DNA from: Thermodesulfobacteriota bacterium
GTDB taxonomy: Bacteria > Desulfobacterota_D > UBA1144 > Nemesobacterales > JAJCZQ01
Length of the DNA stretch: 64,000 nucleotides
Reading direction: 5' to 3'
NCBI GenBank assembly: GCA_965203965.1
Contig: CBDBDR010000017.1
Coordinates: 864,911 to 928,910, forward strand
Each line of letters begins with the position of its first letter. The first letter of the stretch is position 1. The translations under genes and the position numbers were made by a program. Positions 10,421-64,000 of the stretch are shown here, in pieces. The notes beneath the pieces are model-generated. The model saw nothing but the letters and a program-made list of their open reading frames with translations. It was not told the DNA's origin and searched no databases.

Positions 10421-10453
10421 TACATTCCGACATTTATGAGCACTACGTCGGGT

Positions 10454-10530
10454 TTTTTGGCGGAATTATTGACGCTTTAAATGGGGATTAAACGGGATTT
10501 AAACGGTGTTTAACAAGCGATTATTTTTCC
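10454..10530. repeat. 76-bp repeat element, copy 1 (inverted partner at 55501-55577)
   Basis: Identical to the reverse complement of 55501-55577 apart from one C/T mismatch. The similarity has sharp boundaries. There are internal short direct repeats (TTAAACGG x2). Confidence 0.75.
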
Positions 10531-10836
10531 ACTTACAAAAAATGACCGAAAACAGAGATAGTGTTGACTGCCAACGAGTTCCTAACCCCCCTTTAACATT
10601 GACTTTTTTTCTTTAAAATGTCCATAAATTCAGAGGTCAGCGATAATAAGTATCAAAAACTACAAATATTAAAAAGAGTAATGATTACAGGAGTTATGAC
10701 AGAAAAAAGGTAAAATTTAAGCAATTTACTTAAATATAGCGAAAAACAGTTGATTTGACGGATAAAAAAGACAAAAAACTTTTCCAACTCAACACCCCGA
10801 GTAGCCTCGCAACGTCATATAAGAATCGGGTCTGGG

Positions 10837-47578: not shown

Positions 47579-48499
47579 ATGAATATCCACTCATATTTGT
47601 TCATAATACAATACATTATGAAATTTGGTTTATGCCTGCCTATTAGAAGAGACTGCTCATTAGAGTTTAATATTGATCTGGCAATTAGAGCCGAAATGCT
47701 TGGATTTGATTCCGTATGGGTCAGCGACCACGTAATAATGCCGAGCAATATGAAAAAGACCTTCAGTTCAGTTTTTTACGACCCATTTGTATTATTGACT
47801 GCCATAGGAGCAAATACCAAGAATATAAAAATCGGCACCAGCGTAATTGTACTGCCTTACAGGCATCCCGTAGTTGTTGCAAAGATGGTGTCCACCCTTG
47901 ACATCATGTCAAAAGGGAGAGTAGTTTTTGGAGTTGCATCAGGGTGGCTAAAAGAGGAATTTGATACACTTAACGCAAACTTTGATAAGCGTGGAAAAAT
48001 CACGGACGAATATCTACAGTCAATATTAACGCTCTGGCAAAATGATGATCCTGTTTTCAAGGGTGATTTTGTTAATTTCTCGGACATAGATTTTTACCCC
48101 AAACCTTACAACAATAGAATGCCCGAAGTCTGGGTTGGAGGGAGCAGTCATTTTGCCATAGACCGCGCATTAAAGTATGGAACCGGCTGGCAGCCGACTT
48201 GGATAAGTCCGCGGGACATGTGCAAATTAAAGCAATACTTGCTTGGCAAGTCAGACGATATGAACATAAATATGAAAAACTTTACCTTTTCAGTCCGTAA
48301 CAGAGTTAGCTTTAAAAAAACACAAAGCAACACCATATACACATTTTACGGAGATATGGACAATATCAGCAAGGAAGTTGAAGCCTTTAAAAGTGCAGGC
48401 GTTGATCACATAGTTTTTGACCCTGACACAAAAAATGATTTGGAAACGATCCAAATGATAGAAGAACTTTCAGAAGGGATAATAAAGAAATTTAACTAA
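47579..48499 (+). CDS. LLM-class flavin-dependent oxidoreductase (second paralog)
   Basis: Luciferase-like TIM barrel (FDSVWVSDHV...GTSVIVLPYRHP). 306 aa. Confidence 0.7.
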   Translation: MNIHSYLFIIQYIMKFGLCLPIRRDCSLEFNIDLAIRAEMLGFDSVWVSDHVIMPSNMKKTFSSVFYDPFVLLTAIGANTKNIKIGTSVIVLPYRHPVVVAKMVSTLDIMSKGRVVFGVASGWLKEEFDTLNANFDKRGKITDEYLQSILTLWQNDDPVFKGDFVNFSDIDFYPKPYNNRMPEVWVGGSSHFAIDRALKYGTGWQPTWISPRDMCKLKQYLLGKSDDMNINMKNFTFSVRNRVSFKKTQSNTIYTFYGDMDNISKEVEAFKSAGVDHIVFDPDTKNDLETIQMIEELSEGIIKKFN

Positions 48500-48504
48500 C
48501 TGAG

Positions 48505-48900
48505 TTAGCCTTCCCTTTTAGTCATGTAGTCACCGATTGCCTTCCAGTATTTCCACCAGTAGGAATTTTTAGGGTGATTTGCTTTTTGTTGTTCCGTCCA
48601 AACAATAACCTGTTCCTTATCCTGATAAAGAAGGAATTTTTCCCCAGCATCTTTGATCTCATCCTGATCTATCTCAATTTTATTAAGGTCTTCAAATATG
48701 ACCGAATTTATTTTATCCACGGAGGAGTGAATTGTGTGGCATGCCTCTATAATGATCTCTGATAATTCAGCAGTATCACCACTTATGAGATCGGCATTAT
48801 TTTTTATCAGATCAACAAAATCAAGTAGATGATCAGACGATCTCTTTGCTTTTTTAACCTCTTCCATAAGTTTTGTATAGTCTTTTGCTGTTGGTGGCAT
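48505..48900 (-). CDS. hypothetical protein
   Basis: 131-aa acidic cytoplasmic ORF. No recognised domain. Confidence 0.3.
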   Translation of the reverse strand: MPPTAKDYTKLMEEVKKAKRSSDHLLDFVDLIKNNADLISGDTAELSEIIIEACHTIHSSVDKINSVIFEDLNKIEIDQDEIKDAGEKFLLYQDKEQVIVWTEQQKANHPKNSYWWKYWKAIGDYMTKREG

Positions 48901-48956
48901 TTTTTTCTCCCTTCGGATTCAAATTATTTTTCAATCTTACATTATAAATAACTACC

Positions 48957-49748
48957 TTATAAAGTCCTGTAAACAACCACTCCGGGCTTACCCTTCAAAT
49001 AGTCCATAAGATTTTCATCTACGACGTGACCTTTTCTATTTATTGAAGAAGCATGCCTTATATAGATCTCATCACCTTTTCTGATCACGATCCCCGTGTG
49101 TGATACATCAAGCCCGGATCTATGGGAATAAATTCCCACGTAATCACCCGTTTTTAACTTATCGGCAACAGAGCTTACTGTGTCCGATGGAATGTAATTT
49201 ATTTCCCTCGTAACCATAGGTATTTGGGGTAAATAACGAGACCCATCTTCTTTTTCGTTAAGAGATTTTACTACTGAAATAACTGGCTTGCCTCCCACGA
49301 TCTTGGTTACGTCCCTGATCTCTGTGGTGTCGGAGTTTACCCAATCAGAAAAAAAATGTTTTCTGTGTTTATAAGATATTTTTCCTTTCTTATATCTCAC
49401 CCTCATCACGTTATTTTTGAACTCGTGGTATTGCGAAGATAGCCTGATAGCCTCCACGTAATCAAGGTAAGTAAAGCAATCAAGTCCTGCCAGATTTATG
49501 GTTAAAACTTCCCTGTTTTTATGATTCCCTATCAGCGTGGATTCCATATACGGAACGTTAATAAAATGCGCCGATATAAAATCAATTCTTTCCCCATTTG
49601 AACTGTATAGCGAGGACGCCTTGATCATCCGGGCTATTTTATCCTCCGTAAATCTACCAAGATCAATGTAGTCGGGATATCCTACACCATTTGAAGCAGG
49701 CTGAACAATAAAAGTCAATAAAACAATTAACAAGATTTTTTGCATCAT
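48957..49748 (-). CDS. secreted DUF1460-like (amidase/transglutaminase-like) protein
   Basis: Signal peptide plus a region with Cys/His/Asp spacing (LDCFTY...SHTGIV) reminiscent of DUF1460 / NlpC-like folds. Weak recall. Confidence 0.35.
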   Translation of the reverse strand: MMQKILLIVLLTFIVQPASNGVGYPDYIDLGRFTEDKIARMIKASSLYSSNGERIDFISAHFINVPYMESTLIGNHKNREVLTINLAGLDCFTYLDYVEAIRLSSQYHEFKNNVMRVRYKKGKISYKHRKHFFSDWVNSDTTEIRDVTKIVGGKPVISVVKSLNEKEDGSRYLPQIPMVTREINYIPSDTVSSVADKLKTGDYVGIYSHRSGLDVSHTGIVIRKGDEIYIRHASSINRKGHVVDENLMDYLKGKPGVVVYRTL

Positions 49749-49894
49749 AAGGTTTATATTGTAACCGATTCATAGTGTAACAAACTCAGGGACAGTAACT
49801 CATAACAAATAATGAAAAACCCCCGAGTTAATGGGGTAGTTCCAAATTATGTGGTGGTAATAACAACGTTGATGGCATAATCTATAATTATCCC

Positions 49895-50764
49895 TTAACA
49901 CCAAATACTAACTAAGCAGTTAGAGATGGTGAGAGGAAAACCTCCTGTGAAAATGAAAAGTATAGCTCCAAACGATATAAATGGACCGTAGGGAATGGCA
50001 AATTTCATATCGCCCTTTTTCATCAGAATTATCGTTATGCCGACAACTGCCCCCAAAAGGGAGCTTACAAATATCGTAAAAAACACCCCTTTAATTCCCA
50101 AAAATGCACCAAGCATCGCTAGCAGCTTTACATCTCCCATTCCCATACCTTCACTTTTTTTTATCAGCCTATAAAAGACGGCAATCGCGTAGAGAATCCC
50201 CCCACCAAGCAGTATTCCGAAAAAAGAGTTGATCACCGGAATACTTGTAATCAAGTGTAAAACACTATGAGAATCTATATATCCGAGACTTGCAGATAGT
50301 TGCCCAAAATCCGTTATCAAAAAATTGTATGTAAAACCGATAACTATCCCTGGGAGTGTAATTACGTTTGGTATTATCATGTATTCTAAATCTATGAACG
50401 TTATAACGATCAAGGAAAGAATAACAATCAGGTAAACAAAAGTTATAACTGTAAGCCCAAACTTATAGAAAAGAAGCGTTGTAAGCAATGCCGTCAACAA
50501 TTCCACAACGGGATAAACAAGAGATATTCTCGATCCACAACTATGGCATTTTCCCCTTAAAAATATGTAGCTCAGCAAGGGAATATTTTGATAAAACCGT
50601 ATGCCCGAACCACAGTTTGTGCAGTGCGAGGGAGGATAGATTATTGATTCCTCTCTGGGAAGTCTATAGATAACTACGTTGAGAAAGCTGCCCAATATCA
50701 AACCCAAGACAAAAACAAACGAGTAAAACATATATGCGTTTATAATTGCGGTCTCCAAGAACAT
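49895..50764 (-). CDS. pilD: prepilin peptidase (A24 family)
   Basis: N-terminal Zn-binding CxxC...CxxC (CTNCG...CHSCG) and catalytic Asp-containing TM regions. 289 aa. Confidence 0.85.
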   Translation of the reverse strand: MFLETAIINAYMFYSFVFVLGLILGSFLNVVIYRLPREESIIYPPSHCTNCGSGIRFYQNIPLLSYIFLRGKCHSCGSRISLVYPVVELLTALLTTLLFYKFGLTVITFVYLIVILSLIVITFIDLEYMIIPNVITLPGIVIGFTYNFLITDFGQLSASLGYIDSHSVLHLITSIPVINSFFGILLGGGILYAIAVFYRLIKKSEGMGMGDVKLLAMLGAFLGIKGVFFTIFVSSLLGAVVGITIILMKKGDMKFAIPYGPFISFGAILFIFTGGFPLTISNCLVSIWC

Positions 50765-50772
50765 TCTCTACT

Positions 50773-52893
50773 TTATTTTCTGGATATTGATGCGCCTTTG
50801 AGTTCTTTTATGGATTTATTGAAGTGCTTATTGCAGATCGTAAAAACCCTTTTCTTGCTTGTGATGTGATCTTTTATAGCCAGAATTGCCGAGCGTTTAC
50901 AAATAAATTCCACATCTGCACCATTAAGTCCTTTTAATTTGGATGCAATATCTTGAAGGTTCACGTCTTTATTGAGAGGCTTGTGGTTTGTGTGTATTTT
51001 TAAGATCTCGTAAATTTCTCTGACGTCTGGATACGGAACTTCAAGGATTAGATCAAACCTGCCAGAACGCAGCATCGCAGGATCCACCATGTCTATTCTG
51101 TTAGTTGAAGCAAGAACAAAAACATCAATTAACTCTTCAACACCGTCAATCTCGGTCAGAAATTGACTTACTACTCTTTCAGATACCCTGTTGGAATCTA
51201 TGTTCCTATGTGGTGTGATAGCATCAACTTCATCAAAGAAGATTATTGAGGGCGATACCTGTCTGGCTTTACGAAAAATCTCCCTGACGGCTTTTTCTGA
51301 TTCCCCCACGTATTTGGAAAGCAATTCGGCTCCTTTGATAGAAATAAAATTCACGTTGCTTTGGTTTGCAAGTGCCTTTGCAAGTAGGGTTTTCCCTGTG
51401 CCGGGTGGACCTGATAGCAATATTCCTTTGATAGTATTGACCTTTGCACTTTTGAACAGCTCTTTATGCTTGAGCGGAAGAGCGACGGACTCTATCAACT
51501 TCTCTTTTATTTCTTCCAGCCCTCCCACTTCGTTCCACGTTACCTTTGGGATTTCAATCAGTACTTCCCTGATAGCAGATGGATTGACCCCTTTGAGAGC
51601 TTCAAGAAAATCATCCATATTCACCCTGAAAGAATTGGTGTTCTCAAATTCAAACGACTCATCGTAAAATTCAAGATCGGGCAACGTCCTCCTAAGAGCT
51701 ATCATTGCAGCTTCTTTGCAAAGGCTTTCTATGTCAGCTCCCACAAAACCCTGTGTTCTCTCCGCAATCTCGCTGAAATCAACATCTGAGGAAAGAGACA
51801 TTTCCCTTGAATGCACCTTGAGAATTTCATATCTGGAATTCTGGTCTGGAACTCCGAGGTGTATCTCTCTGTCAAATCTGCCGGGCCTTCTCAAAGCGGG
51901 ATCAATAGCGTCTGGTAAGTTGGTTGCACCAATGACCATTATATTGCCTTTTTCCTTAACTCTGTCCATAAGCGTCAGCAGTTGTGAAACAACTCTTTTT
52001 TCAACGTCCCCCGTTACTTTATCTCTCCTCGGTGCAATTGCATCAAGTTCGTCAAGAAAAATTATGGAAGGCTGATGTTTAGATGCAACTTCAAGAAGAT
52101 TCCTGATCTTTGCTTCACTCTCGCCGTAGTGCTTCTGTATAATTTCCGGTCCGTTTACGATTTGAAAATTCATGTTTGATTCATTTGCTATTGCGTTTGC
52201 CAGAATGGTTTTTCCGCTTCCTGGCTGACCGATCAGAAGTACGCCTCTCGGTGGTTCAATGCCCAATTTTGCAAACACTTGAGGGAATTTAAGTGGGAAC
52301 TCTATTATCTCGCGGATTTTGCTTATCTGGCTGGAAAGTCCGCCCAAATCATCATAGCAAACGTTGTGCTTGTTTATTTTTCCCGTTGGCTTTTTACGCA
52401 CGTCAACTTTGGTATGCTGATTAACAACCACACAGTTAGACGGCGTGGTATTTAAAACATCAAAACTCTCACTTTTTGACCCGGGTATTCTTACCGGGAT
52501 CGTATCGCCGGCAGCCAGTGGCAATCCTTCAATAGAGTGGGGTATAAATTTCAATCTTTCTGGGTTATATAGAACATCTTTATTATGAGGACACAAAACC
52601 ACTCTACTCGCATTTTTTGAATTGGCTCTTTTAACCGTTACAAACTCATCTATATCAGCACGTGCATTTTCACGAGTGTATAGATCAATTTCTATTATTA
52701 ACTCCATTTCACAGCTTTCATATCCATTCAACTCAAGTGGCATAGCTCTTACAAAGGTTTTTCTTCTCCCGCCAACCTCTATCATATCCCAAGTAGTTAT
52801 ACCCAGATCCATCATGCTGCGCTCGCTTATACGCGCATACCCTTTTCCCGCGTCCCGTGCATGTATTTCTGAAATTCTTAAGGAAATCATTAC
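50773..52893 (-). CDS. CDC48/VCP-like AAA+ ATPase (N-domain + tandem D1/D2 AAA modules)
   Basis: CDC48-type N-domain, then two AAA cassettes with Walker A GPPGTGKT / GQPGSGKT, Walker B DELD / DEVD, and SRH regions. The start was moved to the internal Met. Confidence 0.85.
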   Translation of the reverse strand, partial: VMISLRISEIHARDAGKGYARISERSMMDLGITTWDMIEVGGRRKTFVRAMPLELNGYESCEMELIIEIDLYTRENARADIDEFVTVKRANSKNASRVVLCPHNKDVLYNPERLKFIPHSIEGLPLAAGDTIPVRIPGSKSESFDVLNTTPSNCVVVNQHTKVDVRKKPTGKINKHNVCYDDLGGLSSQISKIREIIEFPLKFPQVFAKLGIEPPRGVLLIGQPGSGKTILANAIANESNMNFQIVNGPEIIQKHYGESEAKIRNLLEVASKHQPSIIFLDELDAIAPRRDKVTGDVEKRVVSQLLTLMDRVKEKGNIMVIGATNLPDAIDPALRRPGRFDREIHLGVPDQNSRYEILKVHSREMSLSSDVDFSEIAERTQGFVGADIESLCKEAAMIALRRTLPDLEFYDESFEFENTNSFRVNMDDFLEALKGVNPSAIREVLIEIPKVTWNEVGGLEEIKEKLIESVALPLKHKELFKSAKVNTIKGILLSGPPGTGKTLLAKALANQSNVNFISIKGAELLSKYVGESEKAVREIFRKARQVSPSIIFFDEVDAITPHRNIDSNRVSERVVSQFLTEIDGVEELIDVFVLASTNRIDMVDPAMLRSGRFDLILEVPYPDVREIYEILKIHTNHKPLNKDVNLQDIASKLKGLNGADVEFICKRSAILAIKDHITSKKRVFTICNKHFNKSIKELKGASISRK

Positions 52894-53003
52894 TACCTCT
52901 ACTGAGATTTTACAGGCACTCATATTGAGGTCAAGAATCACGACAAATTGAACTGGTGATTATTCTATTTATAATTGTTCAACTCGAATTTATACTATGC
53001 CCC

Positions 53004-54092
53004 GTGAAATTAAGATCCCTAAAACTGAGGAATTTCAGAACTTATGAAAATCTGAACATCTCCTTCCACAATAAGTTTAATCTTTTCTACGGTAACAATG
53101 CTCAGGGGAAAACCAACCTCCTTGAAGCCGTTTACTATATCTGCTCGTTCAGATCATTTAAGTCAGCTAAAAATGAGGAATTGATAACTTTTGGACAGGA
53201 AAATGCCGGAGTAAAGGGCGAAATAGTATCAAAACATGGATTTGATGAGATCAACATTCACATAAACAGGAGCAAAAAGAACATAAAACTGAACGGCAAA
53301 GTAGTTTACAAGCTCAGCAGTCATCTGGGACGATTTGGAGTAGTACTTTTTGTCCCAAAAGATCTGGAAATTGTCAGAGGCTCACCGGGAGTAAGACGCC
53401 GTTACATTGACGCTCTTGTATGCAACCTGAACGCAGATCACGTAAATGACCTCAAAAGCTACAACAAGATCATAAGCCACAGGAACAAGATCCTTGCTAG
53501 TCCAAAAAATATCAACAGTAATATGCTTGAAGTATTGGATGCAAAAACTGCTGAAACAGGGGCAAGCCTAACGGCAAGAAGACTAAAGATAATAAATGAC
53601 CTGACAAAAAGACTTGGCGAGCTTTACAACTCCACCTCCGGCGTCAGTGCAAAAATTGACATAGCTTATAAAACGTCTTATGAGAGAGATAGAGATATTC
53701 AGGGTTCAATATTGAAGTCGTTAAAAAAAAATTTTAATAAAGACCGAGCAAAAGGACATACCACCGCTGGGCCACACAGAGACTACGTGGGCCTAAGGAT
53801 AGACGGTAATGATACAACGGTATATGCCTCACAGGGTGAATCCAAGAATTTTGTTCTTGCCCTAAAAGCTGCTGAAATAAATATCTATGAATCAACAAAA
53901 GGACAAAAACCGATCCTTCTACTTGATGATATTACCAGCGAGCTTGATAGGAGCAGAAAAAGTTTTTTATTTCAACTTTTAAGAAACTACGATGGACAGG
54001 TATTTGTAACTTCAACCGGGGCAGACGAAATCCCCTACAAAGGAGATAAAAAAGTTTTCAGAGTAACAAAGGGTAAGGCACAGGAAGTTTGA
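53004..54092 (+). CDS. recF: DNA replication and repair protein RecF
   Basis: N-terminus LKLRNFRTYEN and Walker A GNNAQGKTNLLEAV. The ABC signature and D-loop (LLLDDITSELD) are present. The likely GTG start at 53004 (VKLRS) is in frame with the longer ATG ORF that begins at 52956. Confidence 0.8.
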   Translation: MKLRSLKLRNFRTYENLNISFHNKFNLFYGNNAQGKTNLLEAVYYICSFRSFKSAKNEELITFGQENAGVKGEIVSKHGFDEINIHINRSKKNIKLNGKVVYKLSSHLGRFGVVLFVPKDLEIVRGSPGVRRRYIDALVCNLNADHVNDLKSYNKIISHRNKILASPKNINSNMLEVLDAKTAETGASLTARRLKIINDLTKRLGELYNSTSGVSAKIDIAYKTSYERDRDIQGSILKSLKKNFNKDRAKGHTTAGPHRDYVGLRIDGNDTTVYASQGESKNFVLALKAAEINIYESTKGQKPILLLDDITSELDRSRKSFLFQLLRNYDGQVFVTSTGADEIPYKGDKKVFRVTKGKAQEV

Positions 54093-54164
54093 TTTATGCG
54101 GGAAACGTGCGATCAGACGCTTTCCAGTTAAAATAAACTCAGTTTCTGACAAATGGAGATAAAA

Positions 54165-55055
54165 ATGAATGTAAAAATCATGGATTTAAATTTTTTTGGA
54201 ACTGAGACAATTGCATCCTACCTTGTAGAAACAAGCGAGGGACCTTTTATCATTGAGACGGGACCTGCTTCTACTTTTGAGAATCTTGAAAAAAGTATTT
54301 CCAACAATGGTTATAAAATTTCGGATATAAGCAACGTATTTGTAACTCACATACACCTTGACCATTCCGGTGCAGCGTGGAAGTTTGCAAAAGAAGGTGC
54401 CACAATTTACGTGCATCCGAGAGGTGCCCCGCATCTTATTGACCCCGAAAGGCTTATGGCTTCCGCAACAATGATCTATGGAGACAGGATGGATGAGCTT
54501 TGGGGTAGAGTTGAAGGAATAGATGAAGATAAGGTAATTCCTACTGAGGACGGGCAGGTAATAAAAATAGGCAACGTTGAGATACAAGTGCATGAAACAG
54601 CAGGACACGCCAACCACCATAACGCATACCTTATAGAGAATAACCTTTTCACGGGTGACGTTGCAGGGTGCAGAATTGCGGACGGTCCGCCAATCCCGCC
54701 AACACCTCCCCCGGAAATACACGTTGAAAGGTGGCACAACTCTGTGGATAAGATACGCAGTATAGATCCCGAGGCACTTTACCTCACACATTTTGGAAAA
54801 TTCACAAACGTAAAAGAGCATTTGGATAACCTTATAAAAACCCTTGACGAATGGTCAGTTTGGATGGGTGAAAGGGTAAAAAATGGGAAACCGGAAGAGG
54901 AAATCACACCTGAATTTCTTGAATTTTACAGGACGTATTTTAGCAAATTTGGCACATCAGAGTCCGTGTTTGAAAAATACGAATCAGCTGACCCTCATTG
55001 GATGAACGTCGGAGGACTTATAAGATACTGGAACAAGTATAAACTGGCTGAATAG
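54165..55055 (+). CDS. MBL-fold metallo-hydrolase
   Basis: HxHxDH motif (THIHLDHSG) and later His/Asp ligands. GGAG RBS 7 nt before the ATG at 54165. Confidence 0.8.
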   Translation: MNVKIMDLNFFGTETIASYLVETSEGPFIIETGPASTFENLEKSISNNGYKISDISNVFVTHIHLDHSGAAWKFAKEGATIYVHPRGAPHLIDPERLMASATMIYGDRMDELWGRVEGIDEDKVIPTEDGQVIKIGNVEIQVHETAGHANHHNAYLIENNLFTGDVAGCRIADGPPIPPTPPPEIHVERWHNSVDKIRSIDPEALYLTHFGKFTNVKEHLDNLIKTLDEWSVWMGERVKNGKPEEEITPEFLEFYRTYFSKFGTSESVFEKYESADPHWMNVGGLIRYWNKYKLAE

Positions 55056-55125
55056 CCTCAATGGTTTATCAACCTGTGTCTATTGCTGTTTTGATAATTC
55101 ATAGTTACAATTGACCTTTTTTGAT

Positions 55126-55202
55126 CGGGGCGTGGCGCAGTTGGCTAGCGCGCGGCATTTGGGATGCCGAGGTCGGAGGTTCAAGTCCTCTCGCCCCGAC
55201 CA
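55126..55202 (+). tRNA. tRNA-Pro (anticodon TGG)
   Basis: Acceptor CGGGGCG/CGCCCCG, anticodon stem CGGCA/TGCCG with loop TTTGGGA, T-arm GGTTCAAGTCC, encoded CCA. Confidence 0.85.
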
Positions 55203-55210
55203 TTATTACA

Positions 55211-55372
55211 TCATACCCTCTCCACAACCATAGCTATCCTCATTTCTCCCCCTATGCAGAGAGATACCATTCCATACTTGGCATTCTTATCACTATTAAG
55301 TTCATAAAGAATTTTATAAGCATTATGGCTCCCGTTGCCCCAACGGGGTGTCCAAGTGCAATTATAACGGGA
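55211..55372 (-). pseudogene. decayed duplicate of the 3' end (last ~53 codons + stop) of the thiolase gene
   Basis: About 93% nucleotide identity to 55754-55915. It begins exactly at the stop codon and carries a 1-nt deletion that shifts the frame. It abuts the 3' end of tRNA-Pro. Confidence 0.7.
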
Positions 55373-55500
55373 CACGTAAAATGGCACAATGAGACAAAAA
55401 ACCGAAAAATGACCGAGACGAAAATTAAGTAAATTACTCAATTTTTATTTCAAGGGGGTATTTGCCCTCATTTTTGCCCCGCTTTTTGAGGAATTTAAAC

Positions 55501-55577
55501 GGAAAAATAATCGCTTGTTAAACACCGTTTAAATCCCGTTTAATCCCCATTTAAAGCATCAATAATTCCGCCAAAAG
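55501..55577. repeat. 76-bp repeat element, copy 2 (inverted partner of 10454-10530)
   Basis: Reverse complement matches copy 1 at 75/76 positions. It sits between the thiolase fragment and the intact thiolase 3' end. Confidence 0.75.
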
Positions 55578-55753
55578 ACCTCTCTAATCCGAGCCTTATT
55601 GGAATTGAGAAAAGCAAAAAATATGTTGATATGGCAAAAAAGAGACTGAAAAAAATTATGGCTATGCCAGAATCACAATTAAAAACATGGATAATAAAAT
55701 TCCATCACAAACATTATTTGTAAGTTGATTAATCAAAAGAGCCTTTACTATTA

Positions 55754-56950
55754 TCATACCCTCTCCACAACCATGGCTATCCCCATTCCTCCTCCTATGC
55801 AGAGAGATACCATTCCATACTTGGCGTCCTTATCACTATTAAGTTCATAAAGAAGTTTTACAAGCAATATGGCTCCCGTTGCCCCAACGGGGTGTCCAAG
55901 TGCAATAGCTCCACCATTCACGTTTAACTTGTTTTGCGGAATTGGAAAATCCCTTAACACCGCAAGGGACTGTGCCGCAAAGGCTTCGTTCAACTCATAA
56001 ATATCTATATCTTCAATACCCAGTCCTGATCTATCCAGTGCAGCCTGCATTGCCGAAACGGGACCAATTCCCATAATAGCCGGATCAACTCCTGAAACTG
56101 CATAAGATCTTATTAACCCCAGTGGTTTCAGTCCTAATTTTTCAACTTTTGATTCAGAAACCACTATCATGGCGGCAGCACCGTCGTTGATCCCTGAAGA
56201 GTTACCGGCAGTTACCGTTCCATCTTTTTTAAACACGGGTTTCAACTTATTTAGCTGTTCGGAAGTTACAGAAGGACGGGGATGCTCATCAGTTTCAAAT
56301 TTTGTGGGATCACCTTTTCTCACTGGAATAAAAACAGGAACGATCTGATCCGCAAACTTGTTATTCTCCAGTGCAGATTTGGCTTTTAGCTGACTGTTGT
56401 GTGCAAACTTATCCTGCTCTTCTCTGGATATCTCATACTTTTGTGCAAGATTTTCCGCGGTAACTCCCATGTGGTAATTGTTGAACACGTCCCATAGACC
56501 ATCGTAAACCATCCCATCTATCAATTCGTCAGACGGCGAAGACATCTTGTATCCCCATCTTGCTTTCTTCAAGTAAAAAGGTGCCTGGCTCATATTTTCA
56601 ATTCCCCCTGCGATGATACAGTAGCAGTCTTCTGCCTTGATAGCCTGTGCGGCGTGTATAACGGACTGCAAACCTGAGCCACACATCCTGTTGATCGTCA
56701 TTGCAGGAGTTTCAAACTTTAATCCAGAATTGACTGCCACCTGCCTTGAAGGATTTTGACCCAATCCCGCACCCAGTATATTGCCCATTATACAATCGTC
56801 TATTTCATTTGGATCAATGGTCGTTTCGTTTATGATCTCTTTAACAACTACCGTTCCCAGATCAACGGCAGAAACATCTTTTAAACTCCTCCCAAATGAA
56901 CCGATTGCTGTCCTGAGTGGTTTGCAAAGTAAAACATCTTCCATGACCAA
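55754..56950 (-). CDS. acetyl-CoA C-acetyltransferase (thiolase II)
   Basis: Thiolase active-site regions (NRMCGSGLQ, GHPVGATG, CIGGGMG). 398 aa. Confidence 0.9.
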   Translation of the reverse strand: MVMEDVLLCKPLRTAIGSFGRSLKDVSAVDLGTVVVKEIINETTIDPNEIDDCIMGNILGAGLGQNPSRQVAVNSGLKFETPAMTINRMCGSGLQSVIHAAQAIKAEDCYCIIAGGIENMSQAPFYLKKARWGYKMSSPSDELIDGMVYDGLWDVFNNYHMGVTAENLAQKYEISREEQDKFAHNSQLKAKSALENNKFADQIVPVFIPVRKGDPTKFETDEHPRPSVTSEQLNKLKPVFKKDGTVTAGNSSGINDGAAAMIVVSESKVEKLGLKPLGLIRSYAVSGVDPAIMGIGPVSAMQAALDRSGLGIEDIDIYELNEAFAAQSLAVLRDFPIPQNKLNVNGGAIALGHPVGATGAILLVKLLYELNSDKDAKYGMVSLCIGGGMGIAMVVERV

Positions 56951-56959
56951 CCTCCCTTG

Positions 56960-57742
56960 TCAGCATCCCCTGAAATCTGCTTTTCTTTTTTCAAGAAATG
57001 CACTCATCCCCTCTACTCTGTCTTGCGAATCAAAGCATTCAAGTCCGTTTTCCAACTCATATTCAAGTCCTTGTGAAATATCCATGTCAGATCCTCTATT
57101 AATTACCTTCTTTGCAAGACTGACTGCCAAAGGACTGTTGGTTGCGATCTGGTTGGACATTTTCCGTGATTCCTCAATAAGCTCTTCTTGCTTAACCACC
57201 TTGTCAACAAGACCTATCTCAAGAGCCTCATCTGCAAGGATCATTTTGCCGGTAAAGATCAACTCTTTAACCTTTCCAAGTCCCATAAGCCTCGTACCCC
57301 TCTGGCTTCCACCCCAGCACGGAAAAAGTCCCAGCCCGGTTTCAGGAAAGCCGATCTTTACATTGTCAGAAGCTATACGTATATCACACGCAACAGCAAG
57401 TTCACAACCTCCCCCTAATGCGTAACCATTTATTGCTGCAATAACGGGAAACGGTGCTTGCTGCAAACCGTTAAAAATACCGTGTGCAGCCTTGGAGTAG
57501 TTTTCAAACTCTCCTCTTGTCATCTCACACATTTGCCCAATGTCCGCACCGGCAACAAAGGCTTTTTTTCCTGCTCCTGTAATGATCAAGCCCTTCAGGT
57601 TTTCGTCTGGCATTTGCTTATCTACAAACTTTTCAAGCTCCAGAACTGTTTCATGACTTAAAACGTTCAAAGATCTTTCTTTGTTAATTGTCAATAAACC
57701 AACGCCGTTCTCTTCCTTTTTAAATAATAAATCCTTATACAT
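56960..57742 (-). CDS. enoyl-CoA hydratase (crotonase)
   Basis: Crotonase fold (AAINGYALGGGCELA, GLFPCWGGSQRGTRLMG). Confidence 0.85.
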   Translation of the reverse strand: MYKDLLFKKEENGVGLLTINKERSLNVLSHETVLELEKFVDKQMPDENLKGLIITGAGKKAFVAGADIGQMCEMTRGEFENYSKAAHGIFNGLQQAPFPVIAAINGYALGGGCELAVACDIRIASDNVKIGFPETGLGLFPCWGGSQRGTRLMGLGKVKELIFTGKMILADEALEIGLVDKVVKQEELIEESRKMSNQIATNSPLAVSLAKKVINRGSDMDISQGLEYELENGLECFDSQDRVEGMSAFLEKRKADFRGC

Positions 57743-57768
57743 GAAAGCCCTCCTTACAAAATATGATT

Positions 57769-58629
57769 TTAGCTATACTCAAAGAAACCTCTCCCAGATT
57801 TTCTCCCCAAGTATCCCAACCTTACCATCTCTTTCAGCAAAATAGCTGGCCTAAATTTAGGGTCTCCAAACTCGCGGTAAAGCACGTTCAACACGTCAAG
57901 CGTTACATCCAGCCCGATTAGATCTGCAAGCGACAAGGGCCCCATGGGGTGATTTGCCCCAAGTTTCATAGCCGTATCAATATCTTCAGCAGAGGCAACA
58001 CCTTCTTCCAACACAAAAATTGCCTCATTGATCATAGGTAGCAATATCCTGTTTACTACAAATCCTGCTCTATCTTTAACTACAACTGGAGACTTGCCGA
58101 GGGCTACTACAAAATCCATAGCTGAATTGAGAGTTTCAGGTGAAGTTTTTGCAGTCTTTATTATCTCCACAAGGCTCATTACTGGGGCAGGGTTAAAAAA
58201 ATGAATGCCCAAGATATTTTTCGGTTTACCCGTGTTCACGGCAAGCTCCGTAACGGGGAGCGTGGATGTATTGGTTGCGATGATTGATTCTCTGTTAGTA
58301 TTTTTCTCTATTTCCTTAAAAACCGTCTTCTTTACGCTCAAATCCTCACTTACCGCCTCAACCACAAGGTCTGTATGACCCAAGTCCGCATAATTTCCAG
58401 TGGTATGGATCCTACTAATGATCTCGTTAGCCTCATCCGCTGTGATCTTGTCCTTCTCTGCAAGCCTATCCAGATTCTTGCGTATTTTCTGCAAAGCAAG
58501 TTCGGCAAGATTTTTATCTAAATCCAAAAGGATCACTTCTATATCTTTTGAAGCTATCAACTGGGCAATCCCTGAACCCATCGTTCCCGATCCTACAACA
58601 CCAACCTTAGCCGAATTAAATTTTGTCAA
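57769..58629 (-). CDS. hbd: 3-hydroxybutyryl-CoA / 3-hydroxyacyl-CoA dehydrogenase
   Basis: N-terminal Rossmann VGVVGSGTMGSGIA and a 3HCDH C-domain. Confidence 0.9.
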   Translation of the reverse strand: MTKFNSAKVGVVGSGTMGSGIAQLIASKDIEVILLDLDKNLAELALQKIRKNLDRLAEKDKITADEANEIISRIHTTGNYADLGHTDLVVEAVSEDLSVKKTVFKEIEKNTNRESIIATNTSTLPVTELAVNTGKPKNILGIHFFNPAPVMSLVEIIKTAKTSPETLNSAMDFVVALGKSPVVVKDRAGFVVNRILLPMINEAIFVLEEGVASAEDIDTAMKLGANHPMGPLSLADLIGLDVTLDVLNVLYREFGDPKFRPAILLKEMVRLGYLGRKSGRGFFEYS

Positions 58630-58641
58630 CCTTTTTTCCTT

Positions 58642-59790
58642 CTAAAGAGATTCAGATAGTATCTGCCTTGCAATTACAATCCTTTGTATCTCGGACGTGC
58701 CTTCATATATCTCGGTTATTTTGGCATCCCTGAAATAGCGCTCCACAGGATAATCAGTCGTATACCCATTTCCCCCGTGTATCTGTATAGCTTTAGTAGC
58801 CGCCCACATGGCCGTCTCCGACGCATACAGTTTGGACATGGCTGAGTATTTAGTGTATTTCTCTCCACTGTCTTTCATCATTGCTGCTTTGTACGCAAGC
58901 AATTTGGAGGCTTCCACCCTTGTTGCCATATCCGCAAGCATAAATTGTATTCCCTGAAAATTAGATATTGACCCACCAAAAGCCTTTCTTTCCTGTGAAT
59001 ATTTTATTGATGCTTCAAGGGATGCCCGTGCTATTCCCACGGCTTGTGCTGCAACCCCTATCCTCCCTCCGTCAAGCGTCTTCATTGCAATTCTAAAACC
59101 CTCGCCTTCCTTTCCAAGAATGGATTTTGCCGGCAGTCTGCAATCCTCAAAAATAAGCTGCGTGGTGCTTGTGGCTTTTATACCGAGTTTATGTTCTGAT
59201 TTCCCAAGAGAAACACCCGGATTATCCAGATCGACAATAAAAGCCGTGAGACCTCTACTTCCTTTCGACCTGTCAGTTGACGCAAAGAGTATTGCCACCT
59301 CTGCTTCAGCACCACTGGTAACCCAGCATTTTACTCCATTTATAATATAATGATCACCTTCTTTTCTCGCACTCGCCCTTATGCTCGCCGCATCCGAACC
59401 CGATTCAGCTTCACTCAGCGCAAAACAGCCTATAACGTCACGAGAAAATGCAGGAAGATATTTCTTCTTTTGCTCTTTTGTCCCAAAATCCAAGATCGGA
59501 ATACAAGCAAGAGAGTTGTGTGCCATAACAATTGTTCCAGTTGACGCACAGGCTTTGGATATTTCTTCAATCACAATTACATAAGACAAACTGTCAAGAC
59601 CACTACCCCCGTATTCTTCGGGTATAAAATGCCCCATAAATCCGAGTTCAAATAACTTTTTAACAGTCTCAGAAGGAAAAGCAGATTTCTTGTCAATCTC
59701 AGAAGCGACAGGTTTAATTTCAGTCTCAGAAAAATCAGAAATAAGCCTCCTGATCATCTTCTGTTCTTCTGTCAGACTTGCGCTAAGCAT
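58642..59790 (-). CDS. acyl-CoA dehydrogenase (short-chain/butyryl-CoA type)
   Basis: ACAD motifs ([22 protein letters not shown]). 382 aa. Confidence 0.9.
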
Positions 59791-59874
59791 GGATTCACCA
59801 TCTTTTTATTGATGATTGAGAGCTGGTGAGCAAGAAGGAATTATAATGCAGTCTGGTAAACAAATCAAAAATTC

Positions 59875-62832
59875 TCAACTTTCCGTAAATATGCGAGAAG
59901 GATCCCCGATCCAGTAATCCTTATAAGACTCCGGGGGATTGGCACCAGGATTGTAAAGAAGTAGGTTTACCGAAACATTGTATTTCCCATGTTTGAAAAC
60001 ACGAACCTTGTCGTCTTCTGAGAAAAATTTTTTGTAGCCGTCAATTTTATGGCAGGAAGCAGTATATTCGTCTCCCTTTGGATCAACGAACACAATCCGG
60101 TATTCATTCTTTTTACACATCCAGAATACAAAATCGGGTAGAAAACGGCGATATTCGTTTTTATCCGAATCGTAGTAGGGAATATGAACATTGTCCAAAG
60201 ACTCATCTATCTTGCTGAACATCCAGGCGTCCCACCCCGTTTCATTGTTTTGCAACCATTGTTCCAAATCGTTAAGAAAGTCAGCCTCGCTTTGGGTTTT
60301 AATTATGTGCTGTATGTAATCCGCCGTGTCATTTCCCAAAATAACGGGCAGATAGTAGTGATTGGCAAGTTTCTTAACCGTCAATTGCAGATAGGTTTCC
60401 TCATCTGACCCCTGAGAAATATCGTTGAATTGTTCAAGCGAAATCTTTCCTTGGGAAAGTCGTCCCGCCGCTTTCCTTATTTCCTCGCCAGATGCTTTCC
60501 CTTTTTCAACATTTGCTATTTTTTCTTGAAGTTCCCGATAATGTTCCGGATGAACGCGAATGTGGCGAAAATGAACAATGTCTTTGTCCTCATCCATTTT
60601 CCGAACGCCGTCTGAGACTTTGACGGATTTAGTAAGGTGGGACAAAAAACGCTCTTGCAGAAAAGGAATCATCGCATAAGGTTTTCCCTGAATTTCCACG
60701 GCGCTCAAACATCCTACCGTATCGCGTAATTCTGCAATCTGCGAAAACACAAGTCCATCTCGCACTGCAAAGACGGAATCCGACGTTCTGTCTATCCATG
60801 CTTTGAATCTACGCAATGTTTCTTCGCTCATTGAAAACGGAGACCTGACCAAATTCCCCTTATCTTCCCGATATTCTGGGATCAACAACGGCATCTCCTC
60901 TCCTTCAACTTCAGGTATCAGTGCCTTTTCAAAACCTTCCAGTTTTTCAAAGTCTGGGTGTTTCTCTGTTTCCAATCCTTCCAGCACGGCTTTCACGGCC
61001 TTGCGATTGGTGGCAAAGAGAAAAAGAGTTTCCAACGGGGCTATTTGGTCGTGATGAGACTCTAATGTGGTCTTTTTTTCTCCCTCTAGAATTGGTAACA
61101 AATAGGCGAGACGGCGACGATGTTTAGGAATCGGCTCTAAGCGAACACCTCGCCCGACGGACTGCACAACAAACTTCTTCGCATCACTACCGCCGATATT
61201 GATAAAATTAATAACGTTGGGACGATTGGAATCCCAACTTTCAAAGAAGGTGCGAGAGCCCATCAGAATTGTGATTGGGCTTTGCTCCAATCCGTCAAAA
61301 AATGATTGCTCCTGTAATGCGGTTGTCTCTTCATATCCGACCAGAATTTTATTGCGCCACTTTGTAGTGTCGCCAATGCGTATAAGCGCAAAAGGAGAGT
61401 CAGCATTCTTCATCTGGAAAGCCAACTCTTTATTGTCACTACTACGAATATACTCTAACGCTCCCTTTTTCCGGCTGAGGAAAATTGCCGCACGTAAATC
61501 GGTGATTTTCATCGTTTTAATCGGGGTTTCATCAATACCGATAATCCCGCCACCGTCTTTTCCAAAAAGAAGAGGTGTATTTTTCCAATCTTCAATCAGT
61601 TCCTTTTTTGAATCTTCAAAAATTTTCCTGTCAATCTCACCTGTGGCGATTTCACGTAAGGTTTGAAAGAACGCCCATAAATCGTTTCTTTCGTTCTCAA
61701 TATCCGTATTTACAGAGTTAACCAAAGTCAACATAAGAGGAAGGTGATACAGTTCATTAAAACCGGTATTCTCCCGAAGCATATCAACCCGCATGGATAC
61801 ATAAGCAAGAGTTATGAGGGACTTCAAAACGATTTTTTGTCTCTCCGCATGGCTGATTTCCTCTCCTCTATTTCTGAACGCGATATATTCCCTTTCGTTC
61901 AGGTAAATACTTTTTCCATAGCCATTTTTTGTAAAGTCCTCCAGATTGTATTTTTTAACGGTTGTTACAATGTCCTCTCTGTCGGTAAACGTAGCGGAAA
62001 AATTAAAAAGAAAACCCTCCCGTGCCATAACTTTGTAATACGCCTGCCGCTTGGAATCTTCCTTGCCACCCTTGTGCGCCTCATCTAGAAGCACGTACCA
62101 CTTGCCACCGTTTTCATAAGTTCGGTAATCTGTCAGTGCATCTTTTTGAACATCAGAAATGTTGTCGCTACGGTGATAATAGACCGTCACAGTTTCTCCA
62201 AGCCGCGCTTGACGGCTACGGTGCATTTCACGAAGCGGAACAAGATCAATATGCAAACCGGAGCGGTTAAACTCATCTACGGTTTGCCGGATTTGTTTGA
62301 GCAGATGCTTACTTGGTGCAAGTATAAGAATGTTATGAAGCGGAATTTCACCGTGCTTTTGCAAGGAATGTAGATATTCAATCAGCTTGACCATGACCAG
62401 CGTTTTACCGCTCCCCGTAGCCATCCAGAAACACATGCGGTTTATAAAATTCCAATATGGAATTTCATCTCCAAAGGAACGAATGTAATCCGCGAGAATT
62501 CGGAACACAGGACTTTGTTTGTCATTATTTCTGTCAGTCCGTGTTTCATACTTCTGTATATGCGGAATACCCGCGTCTTTATATAGATCACTAAAACTTC
62601 TCTTACGTTTATCTTTTACCGAAAGTGGTTCGCTGGGAGACCAATTATTGTCGTCTTTTCCGTAATGCAAATAAAGAGCGCGGGCAGCGTTCCTTAAAGC
62701 ATTCGCCTGATAATCGTAAAGCGTCTTTTCAGTAGAAAAACGCTCAATGTCAGGAACACGCCAAGTTTCCGGCAGGTCGCCGTAGTTCAGGGATTGGGTT
62801 ATAAGTTCAAGAGATAGCATTAAAACTTCCAC
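59875..62832 (-). CDS. SF2 DEAH-box helicase with C-terminal PD-(D/E)xK-like nuclease motif (type III restriction Res-like)
   Basis: Helicase motifs: Q-like YDYQ, motif I MATGSGKT, motif II LLDEAH, motif III FSAT, motif VI QSVGRGVR. The C-terminus carries PDFVFW...IVFVDPKG (PD...D-x-K). 985 aa. The start overlaps the upstream gene by 13 bp. Confidence 0.75.
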   Translation of the reverse strand: MEVLMLSLELITQSLNYGDLPETWRVPDIERFSTEKTLYDYQANALRNAARALYLHYGKDDNNWSPSEPLSVKDKRKRSFSDLYKDAGIPHIQKYETRTDRNNDKQSPVFRILADYIRSFGDEIPYWNFINRMCFWMATGSGKTLVMVKLIEYLHSLQKHGEIPLHNILILAPSKHLLKQIRQTVDEFNRSGLHIDLVPLREMHRSRQARLGETVTVYYHRSDNISDVQKDALTDYRTYENGGKWYVLLDEAHKGGKEDSKRQAYYKVMAREGFLFNFSATFTDREDIVTTVKKYNLEDFTKNGYGKSIYLNEREYIAFRNRGEEISHAERQKIVLKSLITLAYVSMRVDMLRENTGFNELYHLPLMLTLVNSVNTDIENERNDLWAFFQTLREIATGEIDRKIFEDSKKELIEDWKNTPLLFGKDGGGIIGIDETPIKTMKITDLRAAIFLSRKKGALEYIRSSDNKELAFQMKNADSPFALIRIGDTTKWRNKILVGYEETTALQEQSFFDGLEQSPITILMGSRTFFESWDSNRPNVINFINIGGSDAKKFVVQSVGRGVRLEPIPKHRRRLAYLLPILEGEKKTTLESHHDQIAPLETLFLFATNRKAVKAVLEGLETEKHPDFEKLEGFEKALIPEVEGEEMPLLIPEYREDKGNLVRSPFSMSEETLRRFKAWIDRTSDSVFAVRDGLVFSQIAELRDTVGCLSAVEIQGKPYAMIPFLQERFLSHLTKSVKVSDGVRKMDEDKDIVHFRHIRVHPEHYRELQEKIANVEKGKASGEEIRKAAGRLSQGKISLEQFNDISQGSDEETYLQLTVKKLANHYYLPVILGNDTADYIQHIIKTQSEADFLNDLEQWLQNNETGWDAWMFSKIDESLDNVHIPYYDSDKNEYRRFLPDFVFWMCKKNEYRIVFVDPKGDEYTASCHKIDGYKKFFSEDDKVRVFKHGKYNVSVNLLLYNPGANPPESYKDYWIGDPSRIFTES

Positions 62833-63293
62833 CCTTCTTTTGTCATAAATCCAATTAAATTCTCACACTCTATAAAATATTCCCTGCATATAACCGGAAT
62901 ACATGGAGCATTGGGTTTTTCTTTTTCTTGTGTTACGACACACCCCTGCATGGAATGTGCAAGTGCTATAATAAAAGGATCTGCCACAGGGTTTCCAGCA
63001 ACAATATTTCTGCTTTTTATCAGTTTTTGCCAGTGTGCATTTTCGAATAGCTCTCTAACAAATTTAGTCTGTTTTTGATCGGGAATGTGAAACAATGCAG
63101 AATTATGTTTTGCCCAATCAGCTAAACTGTCATCTCTTTTGTTAATTTCACGACGCGTTTCCCTAACTGAAAGAATGTCTCCACCTACCACCATACCATC
63201 AAATTTCTCCCACAAAGTTGTGAAAACATTTCTGTCGTAATTTCCACCTCTAAATAATGTAATGAAAGCACTTGTGTCAAAGATATATTTCAC
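62820..63293 (-). CDS. PIN-like domain protein (DUF4411-like)
   Basis: 157 aa. N-terminal YIFDTSAFI and a C-terminal acidic PVADPFIIALA, consistent with a PIN-like fold. The stop overlaps the helicase start, and the start overlaps the upstream peptidase stop. Confidence 0.5.
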   Translation of the reverse strand: MKYIFDTSAFITLFRGGNYDRNVFTTLWEKFDGMVVGGDILSVRETRREINKRDDSLADWAKHNSALFHIPDQKQTKFVRELFENAHWQKLIKSRNIVAGNPVADPFIIALAHSMQGCVVTQEKEKPNAPCIPVICREYFIECENLIGFMTKEGWKF

Positions 63294-63991
63294 TAACCTC
63301 TGCCTAACTGTTTTTCAACAAGGTAACCTTCAAGTTTTTCAATATTTTTTATTTTCATATTTAAAACTTGAGACATTTCATTTTCACTAATTCTGTTCTG
63401 GCGATGCTTGGTAAAGAGATTCTGTAAAAACGCTTTACCCCAATATGAGATATTATTCCAATAATAATCACCTCCATCACCCGTTTTATCTTCTCTGTTG
63501 TATTTCTTAAAAGACTCTTTCATTTCTAGAAAAATATTGTGAGAGATCAAGTTGTTTGATTTACACCTTACAAGAAGCATTAGAGGAGTAACCTTGTAGA
63601 GACGTGCTACTCTAGTGTAAAAATCTTTGCTTCTGCTGTTGCCTTGCGAAACTTGTCTTTTTAAATCATCGAGGGGAACAAGAGCAGAACCAGCAACACT
63701 ATCAAAATAATGTTCTAATCCCTGGCTATCCTCACTTATCTGTATTCCATGTTCACTCGATGTTACACTGCTCTTTCCGTGCAACAAATGAGCCAATTCG
63801 TGCAATAATGTGAAAATCTGGCGCCCTTTTACTTCCTGACTGTCAAGACAAATAACAGGAAATTCCTCATCATAAAGACAAAATCCCGACAAAGCTGTGG
63901 ACCTGAAGGGCCAGCGAAAAACGAAGATGCCTTGTTTTTCTATAGCATCTCTCCAAGATTCCAATGCCTCAATATAAGAATTAATCTGCAA
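63293..63991 (-). CDS. ImmA/IrrE-family Zn-metallopeptidase (COG2856-like); N-terminus may extend beyond window
   Basis: HEXXH motif LLHELAHLLHG in the usual ImmA/IrrE context. No in-frame stop lies between the first Met and the window edge, so the protein may be longer than the ORF as called. Confidence 0.7.
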   Translation of the reverse strand: MQINSYIEALESWRDAIEKQGIFVFRWPFRSTALSGFCLYDEEFPVICLDSQEVKGRQIFTLLHELAHLLHGKSSVTSSEHGIQISEDSQGLEHYFDSVAGSALVPLDDLKRQVSQGNSRSKDFYTRVARLYKVTPLMLLVRCKSNNLISHNIFLEMKESFKKYNREDKTGDGGDYYWNNISYWGKAFLQNLFTKHRQNRISENEMSQVLNMKIKNIEKLEGYLVEKQLGRG

Positions 63992-64000
63992 TTGCTCCTC

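Follow-up and report, generated by a model that had tools for sequence, protein, structure and literature searches.

A decayed duplicate of a thiolase 3' end beside tRNA-Pro at a strain-variable locus of a Thermodesulfobacteriota bacterium

We examined a stretch of 64,000 nt (hereafter the window; positions 864,911 to 928,910 of contig CBDBDR010000017.1, assembly GCA_965203965.1) from a Thermodesulfobacteriota bacterium, in which the last ~153 nt of an intact thiolase gene (55754-55906) are duplicated in direct orientation at 55211-55362, beside a tRNA-Pro gene. The duplication is a real feature of this DNA, and the copy next to the tRNA is a decayed relic. The explanation that we favour, with somewhat better than even confidence, is that the relic was once the 3' end of the thiolase gene and was displaced when a replacement end was recombined in together with its downstream flank. 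The feature belongs to a known kind of genomic fossil. The parts of the locus are given below in window positions.

55126..55202, plus strand: tRNA-Pro (anticodon UGG) with encoded CCA (ARAGORN; Rfam RF00005, 64.8 bits); left border of the variable segment
55203..55210, no strand: gap TTATTACA between the tRNA CCA, which ends at 55202, and the relic stop (read from the sequence)
55211..55362, minus strand: thiolase relic, the decayed last ~50 codons plus stop codon (pairwise alignment; tblastn against the thiolase, E 4e-13)
55363..55752, no strand: spacer of 390 nt, the native thiolase downstream flank in this species (96.9% identical to sister strain L001 over its whole length)
55496..55580, no strand: 85-nt dispersed repeat within the spacer (inverted-repeat search and alignment; also present in L001)
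10451..10535, no strand: second, inverted copy of the 85-nt repeat, convergent intergenic, downstream of acyl-CoA synthetase and acyl-CoA dehydrogenase genes (Pfam)
55754..56944, minus strand: intact thiolase of 396 aa, an acetyl-CoA C-acetyltransferase (homologues with PF00108 and PF02803)

Pairwise alignment of the two thiolase ends gave ~94% identity, with 8 substitutions and a 1-nt deletion that lies in the tRNA-side copy. A repeat search returned the duplication as two pairs, 55210-55315/55753-55858 (93% identity) and 55312-55362/55856-55906 (96%), at offsets of 543 and 544 nt. Similarity sets in precisely with the stop codon and breaks off sharply at 55362/55906. The window contains one 39-mer of the repeat exactly twice, with none expected from 100 shuffles, and the direct repeat is therefore not due to chance. 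By tblastn the window has no other thiolase fragment, and the 5' part of a second thiolase is absent both from it and from the loci of relatives; the duplication is thus limited to the 3' end. The complement of the relic stop codon, TCA, occupies 55211-55213, 8 nt beyond the CCA. An earlier, sequence-only reading of this DNA had described a direct duplication that begins at the stop codon, 8 bp from the tRNA CCA, with a 1-nt deletion in the tRNA-side copy, and our repeat search, alignment and 39-mer count agree with each of these points. The repeat length of 162 nt that it gave needs to be shortened to ~153 nt, since the similarity ends at 55362/55906 and not at 55372/55915, and the spacer, put at 380 bp, measures 390 nt (55363-55752).

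The thiolase protein is 100% identical to relative P0244 and 97% identical to P0001, and relatives at 97-100% identity contain both the Thiolase_N and Thiolase_C domains. The named homologues are acetyl-CoA C-acetyltransferases from metagenome-assembled genomes of Candidatus Dadabacteria, which supplies the closest ones, and "Deltaproteobacteria", at 72-73% identity. When the relic was read in the thiolase frame, it gave IALGHPVGATGAIMLIK, then a frameshift, then ILYELNSDKNAKYGMVSLCIGGEMRIAMVVERV and the stop. The C-terminal active-site motif CIGGGMG reads CIGGEMR in the relic (G to E and G to R); we take the PROSITE thiolase active-site pattern to allow only A or G at both changed positions. 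With its frameshift and two active-site substitutions the relic is a dead copy, as the sequence-only reading had stated. That reading had also called the copy old on account of its 93% identity, which is only partly right: at 3 of the 8 differences (55232, 55285 and 55317) the relic matches the functional thiolase allele of L001. Part of the divergence may for this reason be allelic and predate the duplication. Two other changes, 55245 (G to E) and 55250 (silent), are common to the relics of the window and of strain L007 and absent from four functional genes. These shared derived changes trace both relics to one fragment that had already been inactivated and is now decaying separately in each strain.

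Sister strains were compared with the window across the locus. Window 55365-62811 has a collinear counterpart in L001 (ENA ERZ25068762), 96.4% identical, and the collinearity stops at about 62811. L001 carries the thiolase and the full 390-nt spacer, has no relic, and shows unrelated DNA at the relic's place; the similarity of the spacer to the L001 sequence after the thiolase stop ends at window 55363-55369. Beyond the spacer, L001 continues with 63 nt, one HARE-HTH and one AlbA_2/PDC-S19 gene, and then the C-terminus of a type III restriction (res) gene; this res fragment shares about 90% identity with annotated proteins of other phyla. L006, from the same sample as L001, is 99.4% identical to the window over RecF, an MBL-fold hydrolase and tRNA-Pro, and 2 nt after the CCA it enters a type III methyltransferase gene (mod) followed by the N-terminal part of a res gene. 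The two sequences may be the two ends of one restriction-modification (R-M) island. In L007, from a third sequencing run, an extra tandem CGACCATT follows ...CCCGACCATT, then a 66-nt relic, then the spacer end TATAACGGG; L007 region 7113-7210 corresponds to window 55195-55370, and the missing stretch is exactly window 55277-55362 (86 nt). L008 ends at CCATT.

The tRNA-Pro is identical in L004, L006, L007 and L008, and immediately beyond ...CCCGACCATT each of these sequences either departs from the others or ends. L006, L007 and L008 have the same single-nucleotide polymorphisms in the left flank, where they are 99.4-99.6% identical to the window. In strains with left flanks 99.4-99.9% identical, the DNA differs from 2 nt after the CCA, and three contents were seen there: a 153-nt relic, a 66-nt relic and a type III R-M gene. 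The segment from tRNA-Pro to the spacer is therefore strain-variable, and in relatives it holds predicted defence genes. These comparisons support a recombination hotspot between tRNA-Pro and the spacer, an option that the sequence-only reading had raised; the comparison of related genomes that it had proposed revealed an arrangement that varies between strains.

The Logan contig L004, assembled from another run, matches window 47798-55362 at 99.93% identity and stops precisely at the repeat boundary. Both it and L007, likewise a Logan contig from a different sequencing run, have the relic beside tRNA-Pro. The L004 relic (7413-7566, equivalent to window 55210-55362) is a chimera that resembles the relic up to 55276 and matches the intact gene from 55283, with the switch at a 32-nt stretch common to both copies; a second shared stretch is 39 nt long. 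The chimera is most likely a bubble-popping artefact of k-mer assembly. Gene conversion was considered and set aside, the switch points coinciding with the 32-nt and 39-nt shared stretches. Short-read contigs need caution at the relic locus.

In the sister species L089, the tRNA-Pro end reads CCA-TTATT and gives way to unrelated DNA. Because L089 shares this sequence, the first 5 nt of the gap (TTATT) look like the native tRNA trailer. The tRNA-Pro of L089 is followed by HicAB. In more distant relatives (L002, L003, L091 and L092; thiolase ~80% identical), the four-gene beta-oxidation operon that the thiolase forms with the minus-strand genes at 56960..59790 is not beside tRNA-Pro, and after it come variable genes, then fumarase. 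The tRNA-Pro of the L002 genome lies ~420 kb from the operon (loci at 349-366 kb and 771-788 kb of one record), and there (locus L005) it is followed by a ThsB-TIR gene and unknown genes, then tsaD. Judging from these gene contents, the site downstream of tRNA-Pro is a variable, defence-rich locus in all three lineages examined.

The order at the locus is the one that displacement of a gene end leaves behind: thiolase body, functional end (55754-55906), spacer, relic, 8 nt, and tRNA-Pro with the trailer shared with L089. Two routes to such an order are known, site-specific integration of an element that brings a surrogate end and a pair of crossovers of which one is homologous and one illegitimate. 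Beside the anatomy, the decay and the polymorphism between strains, which were observed directly, we infer the following order of events and type of crossover. In the original state a thiolase gene would have stopped some 8 nt away from the tRNA-Pro trailer. A second haplotype of this species would then have contributed DNA with a thiolase 3' end and its own 390-nt flank, joined in by one homologous crossover and one illegitimate join, that is, by homology-facilitated illegitimate recombination; a recA-dependent, Campbell-type single crossover of a circularised fragment would give the same topology. The incoming end would have become the working end of the gene, and the resident end would have been pushed aside, still attached to the tRNA. 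Freed of selection, the relic would have acquired its frameshift and active-site substitutions and, in one strain, been cut to 66 nt. A later exchange of cassettes (relic versus R-M island) could have proceeded through ordinary homologous recombination in the conserved flanks, which would explain the near-identical left flanks of L006 and L007.

We favour this illegitimate route, or the Campbell-type insertion, because no recombinase or att-type repeat was found and the island is not bracketed by the thiolase copies. It is favoured also because 3 of the 8 relic differences correspond to the L001 allele, which suggests that two alleles met here, and because near-identical and diverged blocks form a mosaic between strains. 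Between the window and L001, blocks of 0-0.4% divergence stand beside one block of 37%. This block lies in a ResIII helicase gene (59875-62832), where 0-1 mismatch per 250 nt flanks 92 mismatches per 250 nt (60312-60561; region 60062-60811).

Several observations weigh against displacement by recombination. The contiguity of L006 and L001 is unproven; they share a sample, their names carry 6x and 38x (read as coverage), and both break inside the type III res gene, so that an island haplotype without relic rests on the L001 junction alone. When the res fragment of L001 was searched for sequences linking the two, matches were at no more than 93% identity and came from diverse phyla. Both differences of L007 fall exactly on the borders of the variable segment, which random decay does not predict, and its 86-nt deletion stops at the relic/spacer junction without any microhomology; being a single case, these boundary hits can be coincidence. 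The junction 55362|55363 is abrupt, and neither a donor nor an empty-site parent was recovered in which microhomology could be scored. The empty haplotype, with the thiolase ending 8 nt from tRNA-Pro and no spacer, was not found, an adjacency scan of JGI metagenomes giving 0 matches in a collection from which the species is absent. Finally, the recombinase search spans 64 kb of a genome of ~1.5 Mb, and an integrase encoded elsewhere could act in trans.

For this search we scanned 56 open reading frames (ORFs) of the window with Pfam. They comprise every non-overlapping ORF of 160 aa or more, apart from the partial ORF at 1-489, together with several shorter ones. Integrase, resolvase and transposase families had no match among the 56, and no recombinase family occurred among the island genes visible in L001 and L006. 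A second tRNA 3' end (last 16 nt plus TT, at most 2 mismatches) was present neither in the window nor in L001 and L004-L008, and no tRNA 3' end repeat occurred in the visible downstream DNA, 6.3 kb of L005 and 2.0 kb of L089/L090. The sole repeat at the tRNA boundary is the 8-nt tandem in L007. Within the DNA available, recombinase genes and att-type repeats are absent. The sequence-only reading had taken the locus for the scar of a site-specific recombinase, a view that these results do not bear out: no recombinase turned up in the window or in the visible islands of relatives, no copy of the tRNA 3' end lies downstream, and the thiolase copies do not bracket the L001/L006 island. Precise excision by an integrase, moreover, restores a single site, and a duplication with 390 nt between its copies is therefore not an excision product. 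As for a tRNA island, strain-variable DNA does begin at the 3' end of the tRNA, where the sequences of L006, L007 and the window part and that of L008 ends, with no partial tRNA repeat at the distal border.

The spacer matched no Rfam family, a permissive-threshold scan of 55000-56000 detecting only the tRNA, and it matched nothing in phage or plasmid collections. A promoter and terminator scan stayed at background level. The spacer terminus, TATAACGGG as joined to the 66-nt relic of L007 and also read as TGTAATGGG or TATAACGGGACACG, has no second copy on either strand of the window, and an inverted-repeat scan of 55200-64000 showed none. The repeat element in the spacer was correctly placed by the sequence-only reading; it is 85 nt long (55496-55580) and not 76 bp, and has an inverted mate at 10451-10535. 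The two copies are 95% identical, and the repeat contains three tandem CC(G/A)TTTAA-like (CCGTTTAA-like) motifs. Its folding was not significant (z-scores of -1.0 to -2.7, depending on copy and strand), and its 24-mer core had 0 matches in genome, metagenome and viral collections. A scan of a genome collection with the thiolase protein returned only relatives at no more than 58% identity, from other phyla, which are of no use for comparing gene order. The nulls of such collection scans are weak evidence because the species is seemingly absent from those collections.

Both copies of the 85-nt repeat are convergent intergenic and lie just downstream of fatty-acid beta-oxidation genes, namely the thiolase operon and the acyl-CoA synthetase/dehydrogenase genes. 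The spacer also contains two small overlapping ORFs on opposite strands. The minus-strand ORF (55662-55757) would encode a hydrophobic peptide of 31 aa, its ATG overlapping the thiolase stop (ATGA), and the plus-strand ORF (55631-55723) a basic peptide of 30 aa, MAKKRLKKIM...HHKHYL. By eye, both frames of these putative peptides are open in L001 with few amino-acid changes.

An alternative is integration of the kind known from element e14 at icd, with an attP carrying a surrogate thiolase end, the displaced end left beside tRNA-Pro, and the element since mostly deleted to leave a 390-nt arm proximal to attL. We regard this as unlikely. Direct 3'-end repeats of which one completes the gene are indeed present, the thiolase being kept intact at 396 aa like all homologues, and the duplication at icd is similar in length to the ~150-nt repeat here. 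In L001, DNA beyond the spacer holds defence genes that are horizontally mobile. The CCGTTTAA-like motifs, three in tandem, could be protein-binding sites, and what is visible is 64 kb of the genome and a part of the island. Against this stand the lack of an integrase in the 56 window ORFs and the visible L001 and L006 islands, with just 390 nt between the copies, and the position of the islands: that of L001 abuts the spacer and that of L006 abuts the tRNA at mod, with no relic at either, so that the repeats bracket no insert as far as these two sequences, of unproven contiguity, can tell. A degenerate thiolase 3' end that might represent an attP was absent from 2.9 million viral contigs, and there was no similarity to phages or plasmids. 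Such a history would need at least 3 events, with deletion endpoints exactly on the repeat boundary. Another alternative is a local segmental (tandem) duplication of the thiolase end and its flank by sister-strand exchange, unequal or illegitimate, with one flank lost and no foreign DNA involved. The direct orientation and the separation of 543 nt fit this, but it predicts a second spacer copy after the intact copy or before the relic, and none exists. It also requires an extra deletion that ends exactly at the relic stop, and at three positions the relic carries the functional allele of another strain and not that of the neighbouring copy. We hold this origin to be quite improbable.

It is also conceivable that the tRNA-proximal spacer end at 55363 is a defined DNA end that can be used repeatedly, for instance the terminus of a transposon or a recombinase site; different cassettes would be joined to it, neighbouring deletions would begin at it, and the thiolase fragment would be incidental. 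The terminus (TATAACGGG / TGTAATGGG) has three partners, the 153-nt relic, the 66-nt relic of L007 and the island of L001, and in L007 the deletion covers exactly 55277-55362 without microhomology while the tRNA border has an 8-nt tandem duplication. Yet no direct or inverted second copy of the terminus and no transposase is present in the window, the L001 junction can be placed only within 55363-55369, and searches of genome, metagenome and viral collections yielded neither the 85-nt repeat nor the terminus. The two primary haplotypes define the boundary in any case, and what needs explaining is the L007 coincidence, a single observation; we give this possibility little credence. The spacer was likewise considered as a Tn7-like or IS200/605-like element, an idea that was dropped: it lacks repeated ends and a transposase, and the three junctions share no conserved target motif. 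Nor does it resemble an insertion sequence, miniature inverted-repeat transposable element or Tn7-like element, there being no inverted copy of the terminus, and target-site duplications are all far shorter than 153 nt. More doubtful still is that the segment from tRNA-Pro to 55363 is the cassette site of an unrecognised recombination system with fixed ends CCATT and TRTAAYGGGA, which would swap defence islands and make end-anchored deletions; the relic would be a trapped by-product and the 85-nt repeat a protein-binding arm. The last explanation is an assembly artefact that placed the thiolase-end alleles of two strains one behind the other. The genome was derived from a metagenome in which strains co-occur, and the chimeric relic of L004 is what bubble popping yields. 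Nevertheless, the relic lies beside tRNA-Pro in the independent assemblies L004 and L007, with private mutations. L007 has a relic of another length and a spacer junction without a shared k-mer, so that this junction must be in the reads, and L004 breaks at the very point at which a genuine repeat would interrupt a de Bruijn graph. An artefact is therefore extremely improbable.

The remaining genes to the right of the thiolase are listed here; the first three were assigned from ORFs and from Pfam matches of collinear genes in L001, L002 and L003.

56960-57742, minus strand: enoyl-CoA hydratase
57769-58629, minus strand: 3-hydroxyacyl-CoA dehydrogenase
58642-59790, minus strand: acyl-CoA dehydrogenase
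59875..63991, minus strand: ResIII/type III restriction-like helicase (985 aa), DUF4411 protein and M78 (ImmA/IrrE-like) peptidase (Pfam; PADLOC REase_III, RmrA/CapP-like)

The mosaic within the ResIII helicase looks like a swapped or diversifying domain. The DUF4411 protein and the M78 (ImmA/IrrE-like) peptidase are encoded by an adjoining, overlapping gene pair at 62820-63991, and the peptidase gave weak PADLOC matches to RmrA and CapP. L001 has other genes at this position, which indicates a second variable region of defence type, flanking the beta-oxidation operon on its far side. To the left of the tRNA lie housekeeping genes, among them Obg, prepilin peptidase, a Cdc48-like ATPase and RecF. 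The MBL-fold hydrolase just upstream of tRNA-Pro (54165-55055) has a weak precomputed match to Anti-Pycsar Apyc1 (PF23023) beside Lactamase_B; it is conserved, apparently a core gene across related phyla, and has no PADLOC match. Farther away, within the minus-strand ORF 29840-32104, a 183-nt unit is repeated in tandem 4.8 times with 99% identity (29991-30869); this array codes for LysM domains of a 754-aa SLT transglycosylase/LysM protein with 7 LysM matches. The near-identity of these repeats suggests recent expansion or homogenisation.

If the thiolase end was displaced as we propose, the locus offers a clean, datable example of a housekeeping gene that gained a new 3' end and left the old one as a fossil, which matters little by itself. 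Annotations should label the relic a pseudogene fragment, and it should not be read as a sign of a prophage or integrative element. The locus also marks a tRNA-Pro-flanked hotspot at which close strains of an uncultured lineage exchange defence genes. Should exact-boundary hits like those of L007 recur in more strains, a site-specific cassette mechanism would become possible; at present they are a hint.

Among the closest known systems is icd of E. coli K-12, where the element e14 (and also phage 21) supplies a surrogate gene end and leaves the C-terminal pseudogene icdC (PMC13626634). In both cases an intact gene has the last ~50 codons present as a slightly diverged direct duplicate downstream, without the rest of the gene. 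The two differ in that the E. coli copies enclose a prophage of 15 kb that carries its integrase and has been observed to excise, whereas here 390 nt lie between the copies and no recombinase was found; nor do the thiolase copies bracket the sole island seen in a relative. Classic tRNA islands have an integrase beside the tRNA and a distal partial tRNA repeat, neither of which was found here. The locus does resemble tRNA-flanked defence islands, with variable DNA within a few nt of the tRNA and, in relatives, a cargo of R-M, AlbA_2/PDC-S19, ThsB-TIR and HicAB genes. At type VI secretion system (T6SS) and Rhs loci, 3' ends are displaced by incoming modules, which has been attributed to homology-facilitated illegitimate recombination (PMC5361080); the mechanism itself has been described (PMC3240628). 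As with the orphan ends of Rhs, contact-dependent inhibition (CDI) and T6SS loci, a new 3' end and downstream DNA would have been inserted here and the old end shifted and kept, with no integrase. The polymorphic toxin ends of those systems are swapped under selection for toxin/immunity pairs, whereas both thiolase ends encode the same housekeeping enzyme sequence, and the duplication looks like a neutral by-product.

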